64,000 nt of DNA, taken from Eledone cirrhosa (Eukaryota). The position numbers and the translations under genes were made by a program. Numbering within the stretch: the stretch's first letter is position 1; every line of letters begins with the position of its first letter. Below the pieces are notes generated by a model. That model made no database searches, was not told where the DNA came from, and saw only the letters and a list, made by a program, of their open reading frames with translations. The stretch lies in NCBI GenBank assembly GCA_964016885.1, contig OZ024747.1:70928001-70992000 (forward strand), written 5' to 3'. Below, piece by piece: positions 2,866-55,080 of the stretch.

Positions 2866-2905
2866 ATATATTATATATATATATATATATTATATATATA
2901 TATAA

Positions 2906-4540
2906 GAGTATAGACATAGAATATTCGAAAATATTCTGTATGTTTATAATAAACATTTTGAAGACCTAATCGCTATAGAATAGAATACGTCACGTATTAC
3001 AATTAGATTCTCGATAAAAGCAAGGGAAGTAATCTACGCGTTTCATTCTTGTTAGAATTCATCAGGACTACATATCCAGTGCTTTTATCGAGAATGACAC
3101 AGCTAGAGACTTATAGAATACTTAGCTGTGTACTGGAACTGGTTTGAAAGAGCGGTTGCCGGTCCGGCAGAAATTAGAAATTGGAATAAATGCTCTGAAA
3201 TAGCGATATATATGTGAGTATAGACATAGAATATTCGAAAATATTCTGTATGTTTATAATAAACATTTTGAAGACCTAATCGCTATAGAATAGAATACGT
3301 CACGTATTACAATTAGATTCTCGATAAAAGCAAGGGAAGTAATCTACGCGTTTCATTCTTGTTAGAATTCATCAGGACTACATATCCAGTGCTTTTATCG
3401 AGAATGACACAGCTAGAGACTTATAGAATACTTAGCTGTGTACTGGAACTGGTTTGAAAGAGCGGTTGCCGGTCCGGCAGAAATTAGAAATTGGAATAAA
3501 TGCTCTGAAATAGCGATATATATGTGAGTATAGACATAGAATATTCGAAAATATTCTGTATGTTTATAATAAACATTTTGAAGACCTAATCGCTATAGAA
3601 TAGAATACGTCACGTATTACAATTAGATTCTCGATAAAAGCAAGGGAAATAATCTACGCGTTTCATTCTTGTTAGAATTCATCAGGACTACATATCCAGT
3701 GCTTTTATCGAGAATGACACAGCTAGAGACTTATAGAATACTTAGCTGTGTACTGGAACTGGTTTGAAAGAGCGGTTGCCGGTCCGGCAGAAATTAGAAA
3801 TTAGAATAAATGCTCTGAAATAGCGATATATATGTGAGTATAGACATAGAATATTCGAAAATATTCTGTATGTTTATAATAAACATTTTGAAGACCTAAT
3901 CGCTATAGAATAGAATACGTCACGTATTACAATTAGATTCTCGATAAAAGCAAGGGAAGTAATCTACGCGTTTCATTCTTGTTAGAATTCATCAGGACTA
4001 CATATCCAGTGCTTTTATCGAGAATGACACAGCTAGAGACTTATAGAATACTTAGCTGTGTACTGGAACTGGTTTGAAAGAGCGGTTGCCGGTCCGGCAG
4101 AAATTAGAAATTGGAATAAATGCTCTGAAATAGCGATATATATGTGAGTATAGACATAGAATATTCGAAAATATTCTGTATGTTTATAATAAACATTTTG
4201 AAGACCTAATCGCTATAGAATAGAATACGTCACGTATTACAATTAGATTCTCGATAAAAGCAAGGGAAGTAATCTACGCGTTTCATTCTTGTTAGAATTC
4301 ATCAGGACTACATATCCAGTGCTTTTATCGAGAATGACACAGCTAGAGACTTATAGAATACTTAGCTGTGTACTGGAACTGGTTTGAAAGAGCGGTTGCC
4401 GGTCCGGCAGAAATTAGAAATTGGAATAAATGCTCTGAAATAGCGATATATATGTGAGTATAGACATAGAATATTCGAAAATATTCTGTATGTTTATAAT
4501 AAACATTTTGAAGACCTAATCGCTATAGAATAGAATACGT
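2906..4540 (-). repeat. 310-bp hammerhead tandem array (retrozyme), minus-strand arm, ~5.3 units
   Basis: TAGACATAGA recurs at 2911, 3221, 3531, 3841, 4151, 4461; ATCAGG core complement at 3061, 3371, 3681, 3991, 4301. Confidence 0.95.
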
Positions 4541-7500
4541 CCTGATGAATTCTAACAAGAATGAAACGCGTAGATTACTTCCCTTGCTTTTATCGAGAAT
4601 CTAATTGTAATACGTGACGTATTCTATTCTATAGCGATTAGGTCTTCAAAATGTTTATTATAAACATACAGAATATTTTCGAATATTCTATGTCTATACT
4701 CACATATATATCGCTATTTCAGAGCATTTATTCCAATTTCTAATTTCTGCCGGACCGGCAACCGCTCTTTCAAACCAGTTCCAGTACACAGCTAAGTATT
4801 CTATAAGTCTCTAGCTGTGTCATTCTCGATAAAAGCACTGGATATGTAGTCCTGATGAATTCTAACAAGAATGAAACGCGTAGATTACTTCCCTTGCTTT
4901 TATCGAGAATCTAATTGTAATACGTGACGTATTCTATTCTATAGCGATTAGGTCTTCAAAATGTTTATTATAAACATACAGAATATTTTCGAATATTCTA
5001 TGTCTATACTCACATATATATCGCTATTTCAGAGCATTTATTCCAATTTCTAATTTCTGCCGGACCGGCAACCGCTCTTTCAAACCAGTTCCAGTACACA
5101 GCTAAGTATTCTATAAGTCTCTAGCTGTGTCATTCTCGATAAAAGCACTGGATATGTAGTCCTGATGAATTCTAACAAGAATGAAACGCGTAGATTACTT
5201 CCCTTGCTTTTATCGAGAATCTAATTGTAATACGTGACGTATTCTATTCTATAGCGATTAGGTCTTCAAAATGTTTATTATAAACATACAGAATATTTTC
5301 GAATATTCTATGTCTATACTCACATATATATCGCTATTTCAGAGCATTTATTCCAATTTCTAATTTCTGCCGGACCGGCAACCGCTCTTTCAAACCAGTT
5401 CCAGTACACAGCTAAGTATTCTATAAGTCTCTAGCTGTGTCATTCTCGATAAAAGCACTGGATATGTAGTCCTGATGAATTCTAACAAGAATGAAACGCG
5501 TAGATTACTTCCCTTGCTTTTATCGAGAATCTAATTGTAATACGTGACGTATTCTATTCTATAGCGATTAGGTCTTCAAAATGTTTATTATAAACATACA
5601 GAATATTTTCGAATATTCTATGTCTATACTCACATATATATCGCTATTTCAGAGCATTTATTCCAATTTCTAATTTCTGCCGGACCGGCAACCGCTCTTT
5701 CAAACCAGTTCCAGTACACAGCTAAGTATTCTATAAGTCTCTAGCTGTGTCATTCTCGATAAAAGCACTGGATATGTAGTCCTGATGAATTCTAACAAGA
5801 ATGAAACGCGTAGATTACTTCCCTTGCTTTTATCGAGAATCTAATTGTAATACGTGACGTATTCTATTCTATAGCGATTAGGTCTTCAAAATGTTTATTA
5901 TAAACATACAGAATATTTTCGAATATTCTATGTCTATACTCACATATATATCGCTATTTCAGAGCATTTATTCCAATTTCTAATTTCTGCCGGACCGGCA
6001 ACCGCTCTTTCAAACCAGTTCCAGTACACAGCTAAGTATTCTATAAGTCTCTAGCTGTGTCATTCTCGATAAAAGCACTGGATATGTAGTCCTGATGAAT
6101 TCTAACAAGAATGAAACGCGTAGATTACTTCCCTTGCTTTTATCGAGAATCTAATTGTAATACGTGACGTATTCTATTCTATAGCGATTAGGTCTTCAAA
6201 ATGTTTATTATAAACATACAGAATATTTTCGAATATTCTATGTCTATACTCACATATATATCGCTATTTCAGAGCATTTATTCCAATTTCTAATTTCTGC
6301 CGGACCGGCAACCGCTCTTTCAAACCAGTTCCAGTACACAGCTAAGTATTCTATAAGTCTCTAGCTGTGTCATTCTCGATAAAAGCACTGGATATGTAGT
6401 CCTGATGAATTCTAACAAGAATGAAACGCGTAGATTACTTCCCTTGCTTTTATCGAGAATCTAATTGTAATACGTGACGTATTCTATTCTATAGCGATTA
6501 GGTCTTCAAAATGTTTATTATAAACATACAGAATATTTTCGAATATTCTATGTCTATACTCACATATATATCGCTATTTCAGAGCATTTATTCCAATTTC
6601 TAATTTCTGCCGGACCGGCAACCGCTCTTTCAAACCAGTTCCAGTACACAGCTAAGTATTCTATAAGTCTCTAGCTGTGTCATTCTCGATAAAAGCACTG
6701 GATATGTAGTCCTGATGAATTCTAACAAGAATGAAACGCGTAGATTACTTCCCTTGCTTTTATCGAGAATCTAATTGTAATACGTGACGTATTCTATTCT
6801 ATAGCGATTAGGTCTTCAAAATGTTTATTATAAACATACAGAATATTTTCGAATATTCTATGTCTATACTCACATATATATCGCTATTTCAGAGCATTTA
6901 TTCCAATTTCTAATTTCTGCCGGACCGGCAACCGCTCTTTCAAACCAGTTCCAGTACACAGCTAAGTATTCTATAAGTCTCTAGCTGTGTCATTCTCGAT
7001 AAAAGCACTGGATATGTAGTCCTGATGAATTCTAACAAGAATGAAACGCGTAGATTACTTCCCTTGCTTTTATCGAGAATCTAATTGTAATACGTGACGT
7101 ATTCTATTCTATAGCGATTAGGTCTTCAAAATGTTTATTATAAACATACAGAATATTTTCGAATATTCTATGTCTATACTCACATATATATCGCTATTTC
7201 AGAGCATTTATTCCAATTTCTAATTTCTGCCGGACCGGCAACCGCTCTTTCAAACCAGTTCCAGTACACAGCTAAGTATTCTATAAGTCTCTAGCTGTGT
7301 CATTCTCGATAAAAGCACTGGATATGTAGTCCTGATGAATTCTAACAAGAATGAAACGCGTAGATTACTTCCCTTGCTTTTATCGAGAATCTAATTGTAA
7401 TACGTGACGTATTCTATTCTATAGCGATTAGGTCTTCAAAATGTTTATTATAAACATACAGAATATTTTCGAATATTCTATGTCTATACTCACATATATA

Positions 7501-8766
7501 TCGCTATTTCAGAGCATTTATTCCAATTTCTAATTTCTGCCGGACCGGCAACCGCTCTTTCAAACCAGTTCCAGTACACAGCTAAGTATTCTATAAGTCT
7601 CTAGCTGTGTCATTCTCGATAAAAGCACTGGATATGTAGTCCTGATGAATTCTAACAAGAATGAAACGCGTAGATTACTTCCCTTGCTTTTATCGAGAAT
7701 CTAATTGTAATACGTGACGTATTCTATTCTATAGCGATTAGGTCTTCAAAATGTTTATTATAAACATACAGAATATTTTCGAATATTCTATGTCTATACT
7801 CACATATATATCGCTATTTCAGAGCATTTATTCCAATTTCTAATTTCTGCCGGACCGGCAACCGCTCTTTCAAACCAGTTCCAGTACACAGCTAAGTATT
7901 CTATAAGTCTCTAGCTGTGTCATTCTCGATAAAAGCACTGGATATGTAGTCCTGATGAATTCTAACAAGAATGAAACGCGTAGATTACTTCCCTTGCTTT
8001 TATCGAGAATCTAATTGTAATACGTGACGTATTCTATTCTATAGCGATTAGGTCTTCAAAATGTTTATTATAAACATACAGAATATTTTCGAATATTCTA
8101 TGTCTATACTCACATATATATCGCTATTTCAGAGCATTTATTCCAATTTCTAATTTCTGCCGGACCGGCAACCGCTCTTTCAAACCAGTTCCAGTACACA
8201 GCTAAGTATTCTATAAGTCTCTAGCTGTGTCATTCTCGATAAAAGCACTGGATATGTAGTCCTGATGAATTCTAACAAGAATGAAACGCGTAGATTACTT
8301 CCCTTGCTTTTATCGAGAATCTAATTGTAATACGTGACGTATTCTATTCTATAGCGATTAGGTCTTCAAAATGTTTATTATAAACATACAGAATATTTTC
8401 GAATATTCTATGTCTATACTCACATATATATCGCTATTTCAGAGCATTTATTCCAATTTCTAATTTCTGCCGGACCGGCAACCGCTCTTTCAAACCAGTT
8501 CCAGTACACAGCTAAGTATTCTATAAGTCTCTAGCTGTGTCATTCTCGATAAAAGCACTGGATATGTAGTCCTGATGAATTCTAACAAGAATGAAACGCG
8601 TAGATTACTTCCCTTGCTTTTATCGAGAATCTAATTGTAATACGTGACGTATTCTATTCTATAGCGATTAGGTCTTCAAAATGTTTATTATAAACATACA
8701 GAATATTTTCGAATATTCTATGTCTATACTCACATATATATCGCTATTTCAGAGCATTTATTCCAA
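4541..8766 (+). repeat. 310-bp hammerhead tandem array (retrozyme), plus-strand arm, ~13.6 units
   Basis: CCTGATGAATTC recurs every 310 bp from 4541 to 8571 (14 cores); ends ATTTATTCCAA+(TA)n. Confidence 0.95.
4846..4888 (+). ncRNA. Type I hammerhead ribozyme (representative unit, repeats every 310 bp)
   Basis: GTAGTC-CTGATGA-ATTC-TAACAA-GAAT-GAAA-CGCG-TA-GATTAC: stem I GTAGTC/GATTAC, stem II ATTC/GAAT, palindromic stem III ACGCGT, GUA site at 4882. Confidence 0.92.
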
Positions 8767-9426
8767 TATATATATAAATATATATATATGTATGTATGTA
8801 TATGTGTGTGTGTATGTATATATGCATTTGTTTGAGTGTTATCATATGTACTAAATATTAGCCTGCAACAGGAATAACAACAAAAAATTCATGCTGTTGT
8901 GGCTTCTGCTTTGCGTGCGATGTTATTATTTACCAACAACATTGTCCTAGTTAGTACTCATTTTCATGACCACCAAATAATATCATTATCATCGTATGCG
9001 TGTTTTGACGACGACTCTGATGACGACAGTGGTGAAATTGGGATGCTGTATTATGAAGAGTTTTTGAGAATGGTAATGTAGTGCTTGTAGTAATGGTGGG
9101 TTTGTTACTTGGGTAGATGTTGTTCTATAATTGCATTAAAACTTTTAAATATCTTCTAAAATGTATTTCTTTGTAGATGTTTCATGTTTAAATCTGTGTG
9201 TATGAATAGATGCAATGCAATGCACTCGATGCAATGCTTATCGATATCTGCGATGGGTATACATATATGTTTTATACGTGAGTATTGAATATTTCTATCA
9301 TGTGTAAGTGTGTCTTTCTTAAGACTACGTTACTGCTGTGGTGGGAATGTGGATTTTTATATGGCTACTGGTACACGTTTCATACATATGTTTATGTGCA
9401 TAAATAAGTGTTTAGTGTGGTATTCG

Positions 9427-16730: not shown

Positions 16731-17230
16731 CTAGCTGTCCCGCCCGGCTGGCGCCTGGCTAAGTATACCGGCATTTTATCTTTTCAGGATTCCCCCTTCA
16801 CTCCAGTGCAAAGATACCGCACGCCCTCTCAAGTCAGCGAAGGTGTGTGTGTGTGTGTTGGTTAACGTGTTCTAATGTTTTAGAATTCTCCATTTCAGCA
16901 GCAAGTACGTTAAAGAAAATTAATAGTTACAACTATAAAGGCTGAACAGAGAACACATTTTTTTAACAAACTTTACAATAATTTGTACAACCATAATGGA
17001 AATTCCAAGTAACAGAAAATACATAAATTACATTGTTAGAGCCTCGGAGTATACAATATTTTTTGTTCGGCCCTCGGGAGCAAAGATGAAGAGATTGTTT
17101 CGCGAGCTCACCATAGAGCATCCTACATATAATTGACCATGGGAGAAGCATGGTTTTCCCAGATGAAGGCCAGCCACTTTTAGGGTTTGACCCTGAGCTT
17201 TGTTGATGGTAATCGCGAAGCTTAGTCTTT
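16731..17230 (-). mobile_element. Helitron 3' part
   Basis: Minus strand ends with a GC-rich hairpin region then CTAG|T at 16731; helicase C-terminus lies upstream. Confidence 0.85.
17028..17230 (-). pseudogene. Helitron RepHel Pif1-like helicase C-terminal fragment
   Basis: LSFAITINKAQGQTLKVAGLHLGKPCFSHGQLYVGCS...TKNIVYSEAL. Confidence 0.9.
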
Positions 17231-17405
17231 CTGTTGCTCTAGTTACATTTTTTCTTCTGGAAAATCTGATCTCGTGACTTGTCTGGGACTTTTTGGGTGG
17301 CATATCGGTAGTAACAATGACGATAAGCCGTCTGTGCTTTCGTGAAATAAATACGTTTGTTTTTTTTTATTTTTGTGTATGCAAAAGTATCTGTACACGA
17401 ATATA

Positions 17406-17804: not shown

Positions 17805-17876
<72 letters not shown>

Positions 17877-18096
17877 CGTTTCTGAATTTGTTTAGCAAGA
17901 TTCTTTATCTGAAATCGTGTGTTGAAACCGATATTGTTATACTTTGGGAGGGTCATGTTGCCAATAAGAAACACACGCACCAGTTGCTTTCACTTCAATT
18001 TATTATATATTTATAAATTTATAAATTTACAAATCTACAAACTTATAAATTTCTGGTTGGTTGGTTGGTTCCACAACCAGATAGTTGTTTATATAT

Positions 18097-18141
18097 AGTC
18101 ATAGTCCTTTCGTCACACACTCTGTGACCTCTTCAGTGACT
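18097..18141 (-). ncRNA. Minimal type I hammerhead ribozyme, family B 3' UTR (minus arm)
   Basis: AGTCA-CTGAAGA-G-GTCAC..GTGAC-GAAA-GGAC-TA-TGACT. Confidence 0.75.
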
Positions 18142-18345
18142 GGGGATTCCTTTCTTTGTTTCTGTGCCTTTCCTTTCTTCTGTCCTACGCCATTTTGTTT
18201 TTGTGTGTGCGTTGTGTGCTCAGTTTGCGCATGCGCCACATCCGGGTGTCTGTGTTTGTTTGTGTTCATTTATCTATTTGTTTATTTATTTACATGTTGT
18301 TGGTTGGTTGTTTGTTCTATGTGTGTGTGTGTTTTCATTTTGTCC

Positions 18346-20168
18346 TTAATTGTAAGTTGTGATGTTGCTGTTCCACTCATATTTTCTATTTAATTTTGGT
18401 TGTAATTCTTTTATGCTTACTGCCTCTGTAATTTGCCTAAACATTGCATCTTTTCTGTGTGTGGATTCTATTTTTATTTCTATGTTCTCTAATTTACCCT
18501 TGTGTTCTATCTTAGCATGTTGGTAGAGTACAGATGATTCTTTATTATCTTGAAGGTCTCGCCAGTGTTCATTTATCCGTTCCCCTATACTACGAGCTGT
18601 CTCACCTATGTACACTATATTTTTGTTTCTACATTGTCCTTCAGTACATCTTATGCTATACACTACATTTCTAGTTTTACAGTTAAAATGGGGGCTTATT
18701 TTACAGGTTATACATTTCTTATCTATACATGAGGGTCTTTGGAACGGGTATGTCTTGCTAATAATGTTTTTACGGAGGTACCTGGTCTTTCTACTATCTT
18801 AATATTGAGTTTATGTTTATTTAGGGCCCTTCTAAATTTGTAGGCTAGTTCACCTCTAGGGGTTGTATTGATGAACATTACACTCTGGTATTTATTGCTA
18901 TCATACCATGAGTTTATTCTATTGGCCTTGTTCCTAGTTCTTTCTATTCTATTCCAAAATTTGCTCCTATACAAGGGGCTTGTCCCATTTATGTCATTAT
19001 TTACCATTTTTTGCCATTTGGTTCTGGCTCCTCTATACACTCTGATTCTATCTCTCTGATTGTAGCCAGAGAACTGCATACGGTGGATGAAGTGTTGTAT
19101 GTGTCTCTCTAGTTCTTCGGGGTTGCACATGCGGGACACATTTCTCATCACCCGTACCAAATCCGCAATCAGTATGTTGATTTTGGTATGGTCCGAAATG
19201 GCCGAGTTTCGGTGGATCAGATGTTTGGAAGTCATGGGTTTGGCATAATGGGAATGGAGGATTTGTTTTTGGTTGTTAATGGTATCTAACCAGAGCTCTG
19301 TGTCTAGTACAGGTAATCGATGGTTGGGGTGTCTACTTGGGTAGTCTATAGTAACTCTAATGCTCTGGTGGATGGAGTTTGCTATTTGCTGGATGCTTTC
19401 CATTGTGTTTTTCTCTAGTTCCTGACTGTTCTCTAGTGGGGGTGTCTTAACTACAATGTTTATATCATCTACGTAGCGGGAGTACATTATCAGGGTTAAG
19501 CTGTCTTCTAATTGTTCTTTAAGTTTAAGTTTAAGTCTACTGTCCCACCATACCATGAATAAGTTAGCTATGTCGCCTGCAATGCTAACACCAATGGCTG
19601 CTCCTTCCTCTTGGGCATATGTTTTTCCATTAAATTTGAACATATGTTCAAATGGTAGGTGGTCTGCCTCTTGCTGGTCTTGTAGGGCACAGGTTGCTAA
19701 GGTCATAAGTGTCTAGGTAACTATTACTATGGGTAAGCTTAAGTAGAAGTCCCAGCTCACTGGTATCAATCCCACGGAACTCAACCTTGCTCTCGCTGAT
19801 CATTTCTACGCATTTCTCCACAGCAAAATCCACGTCAATAGATGGATACAGGGACACAACATCCATACTGCCTATTATGCAGTTTGTTAGGTCCCAAGAT
19901 CGGTTACCCACGCCGATTCTGCCGAGGAGGTCCTCCGTGCTGTCACATACATCTGGGGACATCTCAATGATGGGGCGTATGATCAGGGAGAGGAAGTAGG
20001 ACAGTCTGTAGTTACTAGCAATGTTAGCTCCACAGACTGGCCGTGTTGGTGGTCCCGCGACAGGGTCACAGCCCGTTTTATGGTCTTTTCGAAGCCCATA
20101 CAACGCCGGCACGTCATTGTTCCAGGCCTGGAAGTTGTTGGCAGTCCTTTTGTTGGGCTGCATTATAT
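18346..20168 (-). pseudogene. PLE RT + GIY-YIG, disrupted copy
   Basis: Same protein as the plus arm, plus extra upstream RT motifs PALYGLRKDHK and RPVCGA; ~135-bp deletion near 19650 and frameshifts near 18720-18770. Confidence 0.9.
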
Positions 20169-21940
20169 CATACGCCCCATCATTGAGATGTCCCCAGATG
20201 TATGTGACAGCACGGAGGACCTCCTCGGCAGAATCGGCGTGGGTAACCGATCTGGGGGACCTAACAAACTGCATAATAGGCAGTATGGATGTTGTGTCCC
20301 TGTATCCATCTATTGACGTGGATTTTGCTGTGGAGAAATGCGTAGAAATGATCAGCGAGAGCAAGGTTGAGTTCCGTGGGATTGATACCAGTGAGCTGGG
20401 ACTTCTACTTAAGCTTACTCATAGTAATATTTACCTAGACACTTATGACCTTAGCAACCTGTGCCCTACAAGACCAGCAAGAGGCAGACCACCTACCATT
20501 ACCTCAATGGCCAAGAAAACCCACACAGATAGATGGAACGCGTGGACCAGAGCCATACGGACACCCGAAAACCACGATGAACTGAAGAAAATGATTGCAC
20601 ATGCGGTAGAGGCCAGCATAAAATTAACCCTTAAGGAACATATGTTCAAATTTAATGGAAAAACATATGCCCAAGAGGAAGGAGCAGCCATTGGTGTTAG
20701 CATTGCAGGCGACATAGCTAACTTATTCATGGTATGGTGGGACAGTAGACTTAAACTTAAACTTAAAGAACAATTAGAAGACAGCTTAACCCTGATAATG
20801 TACTCCCGCTACGTAGATGATATAAACATTGTAGTTAAGACACCCCCACTAGAGAACAGTCAGGAACTAGAGAAAAACACAATGGAAAGCATCCAGCAAA
20901 TAGCAAACTCCATCCACCAGAGCATTAGAGTTACTATAGACTACCCAAGTAGACACCCCAACCATCGATTACCTGTACTAGACACAGAGCTCTGGTTAGA
21001 TACCATTAACAACCAAAAACAAATCCTCCATTCCCATTATGCCAAACCCATGACTTCCAAACATCTGATCCACCGAAACTCGGCCATTTCGGACCATACC
21101 AAAATCAACATACTGATTGCGGATTTGGTACGGGTGATGAGAAATGTGTCCCGCATGTGCAACCCCGAAGAACTAGAGAGACACATACAACACTTCATCC
21201 ACCGTATGCAGTTCTCTGGCTACAATCAGAGAGATAGAATCAGAGTGTATAGAGGAGCCAGAACCAAATGGCAAAAAATGGTAAATAATGACATAAATGG
21301 GACAAGCCCCTTGTATAGGAGCAAATTTTGGAATAGAATAGAAAGAACTAGGAACAAGGCCAATAGAATAAACTCATGGTATGATAGCAATAAATACCAG
21401 AGTGTAATGTTCATCAATACAACCCCTAGAGGCGAACTAGCCTACAAATTTAGAAGGGCTCTAAATAAACATAAACTCAATATTAAGATAGTAGAAAGAC
21501 CAGGTACCTCCGTAAAAACACTTATTAGCAAGACATACCCGTTCCAAAGACCCTCATGTATAGATAAGAAATGTATAACCTGTAAAATAAGCCCCCATAT
21601 TAACTGTAAAACTAGAAATGTAGTGTATAGCATAAGATGTACTGAAGGACAATGTAGAAACAAAAATATAGTGTACATAGGTGAGACAGCTCGTAGTATA
21701 GGGGAACAGATAAATGAACACTGGCGAGACCTTCAAGATAATAAAGAATCATCTGTACTCTACCAACATGCTAAGATAGAACACAAGGGTAAATTAGAGA
21801 ACATAGAAATAAAAATAGAATCCACACACAGAAAAGATGCAATGTTTAGGCAAATTACAGAGGCAGTAAGCATAAAAGAATTACAACCAAAATTAAATAG
21901 AAAATATGAGTGGAACAGCAACATCACAACTTACAATTAA
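20021..21940 (+). CDS. PLE reverse transcriptase / GIY-YIG endonuclease polyprotein (5'-truncated; genuine frame from ~20258)
   Basis: GSMDVVSLYPSI, QEEGAAIG, MVWWD, RYVDD, LPVLD, CIDKKCITC...C linker, NVVYSIRC...YIGETAR..EH; the first ~78 codons are junction-derived. Confidence 0.92.
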   Translation: MLAPQTGRVGGPATGSQPVLWSFRSPYNAGTSLFQAWKLLAVLLLGCIISYAPSLRCPQMYVTARRTSSAESAWVTDLGDLTNCIIGSMDVVSLYPSIDVDFAVEKCVEMISESKVEFRGIDTSELGLLLKLTHSNIYLDTYDLSNLCPTRPARGRPPTITSMAKKTHTDRWNAWTRAIRTPENHDELKKMIAHAVEASIKLTLKEHMFKFNGKTYAQEEGAAIGVSIAGDIANLFMVWWDSRLKLKLKEQLEDSLTLIMYSRYVDDINIVVKTPPLENSQELEKNTMESIQQIANSIHQSIRVTIDYPSRHPNHRLPVLDTELWLDTINNQKQILHSHYAKPMTSKHLIHRNSAISDHTKINILIADLVRVMRNVSRMCNPEELERHIQHFIHRMQFSGYNQRDRIRVYRGARTKWQKMVNNDINGTSPLYRSKFWNRIERTRNKANRINSWYDSNKYQSVMFINTTPRGELAYKFRRALNKHKLNIKIVERPGTSVKTLISKTYPFQRPSCIDKKCITCKISPHINCKTRNVVYSIRCTEGQCRNKNIVYIGETARSIGEQINEHWRDLQDNKESSVLYQHAKIEHKGKLENIEIKIESTHRKDAMFRQITEAVSIKELQPKLNRKYEWNSNITTYN

Positions 21941-22144
21941 GGACAAAATAAAAACACACACACACATAGAACAAACAACCAACCAACAACATGTAAATAA
22001 ATAAACAAATAGATAAATGAACACAAACACACACAGACACCCGGATGTGGCGCATGCAAAAACTGAGCACACAACACACACACAGAAACAAAATGGCGTA
22101 GGACAGAAGAAAGGAAAGGCACAGAAACAAAGAAAGGAATCCCC

Positions 22145-22189
22145 AGTCACTGAAGAGGTCATAGAGTGTGGGACGAAAGATCTATGACT
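22145..22189 (+). ncRNA. Minimal type I hammerhead ribozyme, family B 3' UTR (plus arm)
   Basis: AGTCA-CTGAAGA-GGTC..GAC-GAAA-GATC-TA-TGACT with palindromic stem III AGATCT. Confidence 0.75.
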
Positions 22190-22347
22190 ATATATAAACA
22201 ACTATCTGGTTGTGGAACCAACCAACCAACCAGAAATTTATAAGTTTGTAGATTTGTAAATTTATAAATTTATAAATATATAATAAATTGAAGTGAAAGC
22301 AACTGGTGCGTGTGTTTCTTATTGGCAACATGACCCTCCCAAAGTAT

Positions 22348-22422
<75 letters not shown>

Positions 22423-22497: not shown

Positions 22498-22502
<5 letters not shown>

Positions 22503-22835
22503 TGTAATAAACAACATAAGGCAATTATTCCATTTACCAGTGGTTTCTTAAAAACAAAATATTTTGCTTTCAATCATCAGAATGAAAAAATCCTGGTATG
22601 TTTATTGAACTTGGAATTTAAAAACAACGTTTTTAATGTTGTTTTTAAAATCCAAATTCAATAAACAGACCAGGATTTTTTCATTCTGATGATTGAAAGC
22701 AATTTTTTTTGCTTTTAAGAAACCACTGGTAAATGGAATAATTGCCTTATGTTGTTTATTACATAACTATTAAGCTCTGTTACCTACATAGAGCACTCTT
22801 TTTTCCTGGACTTTTCCGTCGGAATTACTTCATTC
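22498..22835. mobile_element. Family E two-ended fold-back insertion with ultra-minimal hammerhead-like core
   Basis: ~130-bp inverted arms around ~22634; CTGATGA-TT-GAAA in both arms; right arm has an extra ~65-nt tail; microsatellite flanks. Confidence 0.7.
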
Positions 22836-22846
22836 ACACACACACA

Positions 22847-22922
<76 letters not shown>

Positions 22923-37047: not shown

Positions 37048-37199
37048 TTGCTTTTATCGAGAATCTCAAATTGTAATACGTGACGTATTCTATTCTATAG
37101 CGATTAGGTCTTCAAAATGTTTATTATAAACATACAGAATATTCTCGAATATTCTATGTTTTTCTTCACATATATATCGCTATTTCAGAGCATTAAATC

Positions 37200-37202
<3 letters not shown>
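37048..37202 (+). mobile_element. Solo 5'-truncated fragment of the 310-bp retrozyme
   Basis: Matches 8614-8766 with a few substitutions and ends at the same TCCAA+(TA)n. Confidence 0.9.
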
Positions 37203-54419: not shown

Positions 54420-55080
54420 CTAGTATAGGCACAAGGCCAATAATTTGGCAGGAGGGAAAAGTCGATTGAATCGACCCCAGTACGTTACTGGTGCCTTATT
54501 TTATCGACTCCGGTAAGGATGAAAGGCAGAGTTAATCTAAAGGCAGGATTTGAACTCAGACCATAAAGGGCCGTAACTCATGGTGTCCTACGCCCTACCA
54601 ATACTGCCAATCCATCGCCCTCACTCCCATATCATAATAAGGATTTCTTGTATGGGCACAATGCCAGTAATTTGGTGGGAGGGGAAATCCGATTAAATCG
54701 ACCCTAGTAAGTTACTGGTACTATATTTTATCGACCCCGTAAGGATGAAAGCAAAGTTAACCTCGGCGGGATTTGAACTCAGACCATAAACGGAGGTAAC
54801 TCTATGCTTCAAAGCATGGCGCCCGACCCTCTACCGATACTGCCAATCCACCATTACTACCATAATAAAGATTTCTAGTATAGGCACAAGGCCAGTAATT
54901 TGGGGAAGGGGAAAGTCGATTAAATCGACCCCAGTACGTTACTGGTGCCTTATTTTATCGACCTCGTAAGGATGAAAGGCAAAGTTAACCTCGACGGGAG
55001 TTGAACTCAAACCGTAAAGGGATGTAACTATGCTAGAAAGCATGGCATCCAACCCTCTATTGATACTGCTAATTCACATA
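54420..55080 (-). mobile_element. Three head-to-tail SINE family 1 copies
   Basis: Units of ~225 bp at ~54420, ~54645 and ~54872, each with GGCACAA.GCCA..ATCGACCC.AGTA..TTGAACTCA. Confidence 0.85.

Follow-up and report, generated by a model that had tools for sequence, protein, structure and literature searches.

A tandem hammerhead repeat of Eledone cirrhosa with a conserved RNA fold, and its probable insertion by Penelope-type twin priming on an RNA circle

Introduction

How does a short, non-coding repeat that carries a ribozyme come to occupy thousands of places in an animal genome, and does the RNA that it would encode have a structure on which selection acts? Both questions are raised by a 310-bp tandem unit found in a stretch of 64,000 nucleotides from Eledone cirrhosa (GenBank assembly GCA_964016885.1, contig OZ024747.1, positions 70,928,001 to 70,992,000 of the forward strand), which is called the window throughout and supplies the coordinates used here unless a unit position is given. 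An original prediction had proposed that the monomer folds into a branched, viroid-like structure with an extended stem I, and that this structure is under selection. The analysis described below leads us to consider it probable that the unit is a retrozyme without long terminal repeats (a non-LTR retrozyme) having a conserved fold, and that its copies are made by twin priming of the kind used by Penelope-like elements (PLEs), acting on an RNA circle.

The array and its hammerhead ribozyme

The window contains one insertion of the unit, arranged as two arms with (TA)n runs on both sides:

2906–4541, minus strand: left arm, with 5.3 units and, on its outer side, the RNA 3' end at unit position 191 (site 1)
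4539–8767, plus strand: right arm, with 13.6 units, all identical, and the RNA 3' end at unit position 227 (site 2) on its outer side
4539–4541, no strand assigned: inversion junction, a 3-nt overlap GTC common to both arms
2894–2905, plus strand: left copy of a likely 12-bp target-site duplication, of low information as it lies in a TA run
8766–8777, plus strand: right copy of the same likely duplication

The right arm is free of variants; the left shows a one-off change at each of two positions, 3649 and 3803. The unit has a GC content of 34.5%; no open reading frame (ORF) of at least 110 amino acids was found over the array, and the unit, which is non-coding, contains no LTR arrangement (primer-binding sites and polypurine tracts were not searched for). 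Across the genome there are about 14,400 exact matches to the ribozyme motif (4,085 for a first pattern and 10,327 for another, whereas the reversed controls gave 0), the loci being dispersed over many contigs with unique flanks. Besides the form seen in the array (A) there is a second young subfamily, B, with a unit of 312 bp and 15–23 differences per unit, to which the copy near 37 kb belongs (94% identical to the array unit, with about nine differences):

37048–37202, plus strand: single-armed fragment of subfamily B, 155 nt, ending at site 2 in (TA)n

Each unit carries one hammerhead motif, of which the parts, given for one representative unit, are as follows:

4843–4889, plus strand: type I hammerhead motif, one per unit and in every unit
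4843–4845 and 4889, plus strand: loop 1, TAT and T
4846–4851 with 4883–4888, plus strand: stem I, GUAGUC/GAUUAC, 6 bp
4852–4858, plus strand: core CTGATGA (CUGAUGA)
4859–4862 with 4869–4872, plus strand: stem II, AUUC/GAAU, 4 bp, with loop TAACAA
4873–4876, plus strand: GAAA, followed by a 1-bp stem III with a palindromic CGCG cap
4882, plus strand: predicted cut site, after GUA
4883–5192, plus strand: predicted self-cleaved monomer, which would ligate to a 310-nt circle, judging by the sequence and by a linear fold with paired ends

In all 34 aligned copies (see below) the 6-bp stem I is followed by a loop 1 in which three nucleotides on the 5' side lie opposite one U, an arrangement that presumably matches the 3-nt/1-nt loop 1 of Schistosoma Sm-alpha. 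Loop 2 has six bases in each of the same 34 copies, most commonly UAACAA, UAAUAA, CAACCA or CAAUAA (of the form YAAYNA). Type I ribozymes are known to make loop–loop contacts of this sort (PMC6155905, PMC3088659), and the loop 1/loop 2 tertiary contact put forward in the original prediction, which would be an ordinary one, is plausible given that the loop sizes are kept. With its CUGANGA, GAAA and NUH elements, 6-bp helix I, 4-bp helix II and short palindromic helix III, the motif has the features of a canonical type I hammerhead, and the layout is the one regarded as canonical for metazoans, a form that is active as a dimer (PMC4209133). In family D, an older relative introduced below, U3 of the core is accompanied by A8 in 12/12 copies, the same core covariation as is described in PMC4209133; copies of this family (e.g. 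L183:1549–1867, minus strand) are also seen to have a 12-nt palindromic stem III, and their equivalent of the UUCG hairpin is capped by GCAA instead. No CUGANGA occurs in the minus strand of the unit.

Predicted RNA fold

All the strings that the original prediction had named are present in place within 4821–5130. That interval is a real 310-nt unit, but as a monomer it is an arbitrary rotation, since self-cleavage would instead release 4883–5192. The main elements of the predicted fold are these:

4822–4910, plus strand: extended stem I arm, comprising a 16-bp helix (4822–4837 with 4895–4910), a CT/CT loop and GGA/TCC (4840–4842 with 4890–4892)
4919–4933, plus strand: AATACG/CGTATT hairpin with a 3-nt loop, in families A/B only, with a different hairpin in C and D
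4941–5027, plus strand: multiloop closed by ATAGCGAT (4941–4948) with ATCGCTAT (5020–5027), containing hairpins at 4961–4977, 4980–4999 (UUCG) and 5000–5017
5031–5078, plus strand: AGAGC/GCTCT helix, within which lie the GCC hairpin (5058–5070) and a long stretch of unpaired bases (site 2)
5096–5130, plus strand: helix of ACACAGCTA (5096–5104) with TAGCTGTGT (5122–5130), in register only in families A/B

Folded as a circle, the unit is more stable than its shuffled counterparts (z −4.2, with 0/150 shuffles as good), and in linear form it gives z −4.73 on the plus strand and −4.77 on the minus strand relative to dinucleotide shuffles (0/100 as good in each case). Of 23 other 310-nt stretches of the window, 22 give z between −2.1 and +1.4, the remaining one being a DNA foldback. 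The shape is branched, as had been proposed, with seven hairpins and 57% of bases paired, although some details differ: GGA/TCC does lie next to stem I, but it is a helix of 3 bp, flanked by the internal loops TAT/T and CT/CT, rather than itself a loop, and ATACGT-G-ACGTAT and TGCCGG-A-CCGGCA do form hairpins, but not with 1-nt loops, which cannot close, so that both fold with 3-nt loops. Mean pair probabilities in the circle are high for the 16-bp helix (0.96), GGA/UCC (0.92), stem I (0.99), stem II (0.91), the UUCG hairpin (0.88), the GCC hairpin (0.92) and the ACACAG helix (0.98), and 0.64 for the long-range pair. The signal lies mainly in unit positions 1–90 (z −6.9). The predicted circle is thus stable and self-paired, with the ribozyme free to fold, and in the linear fold of the cut monomer 4883–5192 its 5' and 3' ends are brought together by pairing in the extended stem I, an arrangement that would suit ligation.

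Compensatory changes across families

Within the young family no covariation is possible, as the copies are almost identical. Older relatives present in the flanks of three loci yielded two further families, C (28 full units) and D (29 full units), which have 61% and 57% identity, respectively, to the window unit and 70% to one another. An alignment was made of 34 of the 124 distinct units (4 A, 6 B, 12 C and 12 D), the structure being defined from the window unit alone, and for each helix the p value is relative to random placement of the same number of changes.

In the 16-bp helix, family C keeps 14/16 pairs with 11/32 positions changed and four two-sided changes (p 0.008), while family D keeps 14/15 with 15/30 positions changed and six two-sided changes (p 0.00015); if the register is shifted by 1–4 columns, only 5–9 of 13–14 pairs remain. 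Stems I and II together keep 9/10 pairs in both C and D (p 0.005 and 0.002), and the UUCG hairpin keeps 8/8 in both (p 0.04 and 0.006). Taking all 83 pairs, 85.3% of cells pair, against 33–49% when partners are slid by 1–3 columns, and two-sided changes are seen in 29/83 pairs, against 6–11 in the slid controls. RNAalifold recovers the same stem I arm, with a two-sided change in 24/51 pairs, and the folding z of families C and D themselves is −5.5 and −5.8, respectively. Conservation extends to the long-range pair and the GCC hairpin, with too few changes in either for a test of covariation. In the tested helices there are 11 G–U pairs and no A–C mismatches, which implies that the plus strand is the RNA. 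Private changes in old family C copies, on the other hand, break pairs in 31/55 cases, so that selection would have acted on source lineages and not on resident copies.

It is therefore this covariation across A/B, C and D that bears out the proposed selection on RNA structure, and the view that the branched fold is selected and conserved by compensatory changes across three families is supported by the sequences compared. The two variants originally cited in its favour do not serve that purpose. The change at 3649 does turn a stem I G–C pair into G–U, but it is confined to a single unit and is one of two sporadic changes in the array; that in the 37-kb copy (C at 37144) is indeed located in the UUCG loop, yet it is only one among the roughly nine differences that distinguish the subfamily in this fragment. 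Both are weak evidence, and as a one-off transition and a subfamily marker they were rejected as signs of selection. The changes that subfamily B has in stem I keep pairing (G–U to A–U and U–A to U–G), while its change at position 39 gives a U–U pair; most other A/B differences are in loops, and overall these differences avoid paired positions only weakly and not significantly (4/14 paired, p 0.065).

Anatomy of the insertions

If the structure of the unit suggests an RNA stage, the way in which arrays begin, turn and end may suggest how that RNA is copied into DNA. The main set examined comprised 26 loci taken in chromosome order along contig 1, reduced to 25 by omission of L115 (a lone unrelated motif match); from the matches listed for the two motif patterns, 11/12 and 15/15 were used, and because these patterns require an intact ribozyme, the sample favours young, longer arrays. 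The arms are divergent in 21/25 loci and convergent in none, the other four being single-armed. In 20/21 divergent loci one outer end lies at unit position ~188–201 and the other at ~216–232 (mostly 225–232). A second set of 21 loci, chosen by match quality and hence not unbiased, gave 19/21 divergent, of which 18/19 have one end at each site; for subfamily B the figures are 11/14 and 7/11, and families C and D end at the equivalent two sites. The interval between the sites can be described as a tail:

5012–5047, plus strand: tail between the two preferred 3' end sites, ~35 nt apart, which are the putative starts of reverse transcription; located within the best conserved part of the unit

Most array ends adjoin (TA)n, and where the target is informative (L033, L114, L122 and L132) there are direct target duplications of 12–15 bp. 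Among 51 inversion junctions, 11 have filler bases and one is rearranged; of the 39 others, 28 show an overlap of at least 2 nt, against 18% by chance. The phases of the junctions are spread over the whole unit, just 2/102 junction ends being within 3 nt of the ribozyme cut site, and arms reach ~17 units, running through up to 13–17 cut sites. No earlier description of back-to-back retrozyme arrays was found in the literature searched, coverage of which was partial.

For PLEs, a partner copy that is inverted and 5'-truncated has been reported at insertions, together with a tail of 30–40 bp at just one end, and some of these elements target (TA)n (PMC8557442). The anole PLE protein, a predicted dimer, was purified and shown to cleave AT-rich DNA on both strands, to extend each of them, and to begin synthesis at a pair of neighbouring internal positions in the RNA, between which the tail lies (PMC11167929). 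The arrays likewise have an inverted partner copy and a one-sided tail (20/21). A young element of PLE type with the same anatomy is present in the window itself, at ~17875–22351 in (TA)n, with two inverted arms that are 97–100% alike and a tail of ~55 nt on the left arm only; it has an ORF at 20012–21940 with a reverse transcriptase match (E 0.0004) and a C terminus that looks GIY-YIG-like by eye, and minimal hammerheads at 22150 (plus strand) and 18136 (minus strand). Its family is a candidate helper for the retrozyme.

One template for both arms

All 20 two-armed loci compared in the contig 1 set (one of them over only 74 positions) have a single haplotype in their two arms, 14 haplotypes being represented in all. 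In addition, variant 135A is present in all six units of one insertion, three in each arm, and elsewhere in only two single places. Because the arms share haplotypes and 135A fills one insertion, it would appear that one monomeric circle was copied repeatedly from both target ends; the sequence pattern points to twin-primed rolling-circle reverse transcription of a single circle.

Proposed mechanism and alternatives

The course of events that we favour may be set out as follows. A transcript of the tandem unit would cut itself into monomers, which would then be ligated into circles, the long stem I arm probably holding the cut ends together for ligation and setting loop 1 against loop 2. To judge from known relatives, stem III, being palindromic and of one pair, points to cleavage of the multimer by a double hammerhead and near silence of the monomeric circle. 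A PLE protein would nick both strands of a (TA)n or AT-rich target 12–15 bp apart, and each free 3' end would prime reverse transcription on the same circle, one at each site, ~35 nt apart. Both enzymes may run several times round the circle before the two cDNAs are joined via a few bases of microhomology, the order of these events being our proposal. In its most specific form, that the arrays are the record of double rolling-circle reverse transcription, in which a PLE dimer primes both target strands on a single circle at two fixed sites and for which the conserved tail is the enzyme's recognition signal, we would put this scheme at slightly better than an even chance.

The most serious rival retains the retrozyme and PLE-type twin priming but takes as template a long, uncleaved multimeric transcript of a master array. 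Slow cleavage is plausible given the weak stem III (PMC4209133), anole PLE protein used unprocessed RNA in vitro with no need for ribozyme cleavage (PMC11167929), arms of at most ~17 units lie within the range of existing arrays, and variant 97T is common to several arrays. For the insertion filled by 135A, however, the assembly has no other array from which the variant could have been copied. Several other rare variants similarly occupy all units in both arms; sporadic changes specific to a unit are scarce, and no recurrence of them in order was observed; and the covariation retained by the ribozyme core and stems implies a role for cleavage. We therefore regard a multimeric template as unlikely, though still worth entertaining.

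Less likely again, and in our estimation improbable, is that the arrays were made by the enzyme of a long interspersed element (LINE) of L1, RTE or CR1 type through ordinary twin priming, a TA-like stretch of the unit annealing to the target. L1 elements are known for twin priming with microhomology at the junction and for 12–15-bp duplications, all of which match what is seen here, and site 1 adjoins ACATATATAT, which is able to pair with (TA)n. Against this, the second primer in L1-type priming anneals at a random internal place, whereas the ends here are fixed, one at each site (20/21); site 2 matches the target by 1–2 nt only, and the pattern equals that of the PLE tail (PMC8557442) and is common to the PLE-type elements in the window. 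The least likely alternative, which we would credit only with the slightest of chances, dispenses with RNA structure altogether: the helices would be by-products of DNA-level processes (template switching and inverted-arm correction) in a recombining satellite, and the inversions would be rearrangements or assembly foldbacks. It is true that the folding z is equal on both strands, that in family A the two sides of the 16-bp helix form an inverted repeat without a mismatch, and that the genome is rich in foldback elements. Against it stand the 11 G–U pairs with no A–C mismatches, the U3–A8 core covariation and the helices of C and D, which are imperfect but fully paired, as well as dispersed loci whose flanks are unique, array ends at fixed places, junctions in random phase and duplicated targets.

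Returning to PLE-type priming of a retrozyme circle, a number of observations weigh against it or against parts of it, and they should be set down together. As regards the ribozyme, a search of the whole window with Rfam at the gathering threshold returned 0 matches, and the HH9 model scores on the unit at E 0.003 and 23 bits, far below the curated gathering score of 52; subfamily B and other common variants carry U–U at the stem II base; and eight of nine predicted Xenopus retrozymes were left uncleaved in vitro (bioRxiv 10.64898/2026.07.22.740005). As regards the fold, unit positions 91–310 fold weakly (z −2.1, with 4/200 shuffles as good, a value at the limit of the range given by the 22 other window stretches), and the covariation comes from three lineages only, with few independent events and statistics that are not phylogeny-aware. 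Two of the helices originally proposed have been ruled out as conserved elements, C and D having other hairpins in their place: in register, the ATACGT hairpin keeps 1/6 pairs in C and likewise in D, and the ACACAGCTA helix 5/9 in C and 3/9 in D. As regards templates, the arms of L048 are of two haplotypes joined by 23 nt of filler, those of subfamily B differ in 3/9 two-armed loci, and 97T, being common to seven multi-unit places, marks a lineage and is not private. Four of 25 loci, as noted, are single-armed, while L031 and L117 carry inverted rather than direct flank copies. Finally, the unit has no DNA similarity to the young PLE at 17875–22351, and two targeted patterns for a parent PLE sharing the unit sequence gave 0 and 1 matches, the one being a family C copy (no genome-wide PLE survey was made).

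L048 appears to be an insertion made from two templates, and the inverted TA flanks extend over 57 nt with 10 informative steps in L031 and over 22 nt with 4 steps in L117.

Other features of the window

Several further features of the window touch on the same subjects. Directly to the left of the TA run that took the array lies what appears to be an older PLE-type remnant (145–2800), with a GIY-YIG-like frame at 693–1451 (by eye, there being no Pfam match) and a hammerhead-like remnant near 2496. At 22499–22849 there is a foldback between two (TA)n runs, with arms of ~130 nt, an 80-nt extension on one side only and a folding z of −31, the insertion signature of which is like that of PLE-type elements. 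Unrelated to these are a frame at 17028–17366 (minus strand), without a Pfam match at E 0.01, that we take by eye to resemble the C-terminal part of a Pif1-type (Helitron-like) helicase, and, at 54633–55077, two tandem 228-bp copies of a repeat like a short interspersed element, which we take to be one present in octopus genomes. Outside this genome, runs X4, X5 and X6, from three other organisms, each contain one 340-nt contig matching within window positions 4821–5440 (a whole unit plus 30 nt, with 2–4 differences), which may reflect a related species, library carry-over or RNA.

Relation to known systems

On its sequence features, each of those tested having been found, the unit is an animal non-LTR retrozyme. 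Those of coral, mussel and axolotl (PMC7229834) similarly have tandem units of 150–450 bp, low GC, a single type I hammerhead in each unit, neither LTRs nor a coding frame, and a predicted self-paired circle in which the ribozyme is free to fold. The 310-bp unit is like axolotl HHR_Amex1 in its one-pair stem III and palindromic tetraloop, and subfamily B is like HHR_Amex2 in the U–U at the stem II base (PMC7229834). Many dispersed copies with target duplications of more than 4 bp, the mark of a retrozyme, are also found here (duplications of 12–15 bp). In PMC7229834 expression and circles were demonstrated and RtcB was able to circularise animal retrozymes in vitro, the circle of the 310-bp unit being a predicted one; the available text of that paper makes no mention of back-to-back arrays, fixed 3' end sites, (TA)n targeting or haplotype sharing. 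Newt satellite 2 and Schistosoma Sm-alpha, compared by layout and not by sequence identity, are alike in type I topology, 6-bp helix I, 4-bp helix II, loop–loop contact and a helix III that is palindromic and weak, so that cleavage as a dimer is favoured (PMC6155905, PMC4209133).

The likeness to Avsunviroidae extends to size, branched fold and hammerhead, but the unit differs from them in having thousands of genomic copies, a hammerhead core confined to one strand, and a ribozyme that self-pairing (57% of bases) does not block. The term "viroid-like" used in the original prediction is accordingly apt as regards shape, while hammerheads in both polarities and the lack of a DNA counterpart are not features of this unit; as judged from genomic DNA there is no sign of infectivity or of RNA-to-RNA replication. 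With PLEs (Penelope/Poseidon, Neptune and Naiad; PMC8557442, PMC11167929) it has in common the inverted 5'-truncated copy, the 30–40-bp tail at one end, the (TA)n or AT-rich targets, two adjacent internal starts and a hammerhead in the repeat; it is unlike them in that the 310-bp unit has no ORF, that both arms are multimers of a short unit, and that its hammerhead is canonical rather than minimal. Retrozymes have been tied to PLEs by distribution and co-occurrence and by similarity to the PLE pseudo-LTR (pLTR), without insertion anatomy in the text available (bioRxiv 10.64898/2026.07.22.740005); there 24/57 Xenopus families had a pLTR link, while none was found for the 310-bp unit in the young PLE of the window or with the two targeted patterns.

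Significance

That retrozyme circles are self-paired was already known, and here it is backed by covariation across three families. For the re-entry of animal retrozymes into the genome, circle templates have been proposed and PLEs named as candidates (PMC7229834), and the tandem and inverted structures of PLEs have been described as lacking an explanation (PMC8557442). The insertion anatomy described here makes mobilisation testable: with a very young family, thousands of near-identical insertions, fixed starts, shared haplotypes and young PLE-type elements in the same genome, both the retrozyme question and that of PLE structure can be addressed directly. If the double rolling-circle reading is true, animal retrozymes would move as circles by means of PLE enzymes, and the same process would explain inverted, one-tailed PLE insertions in general.

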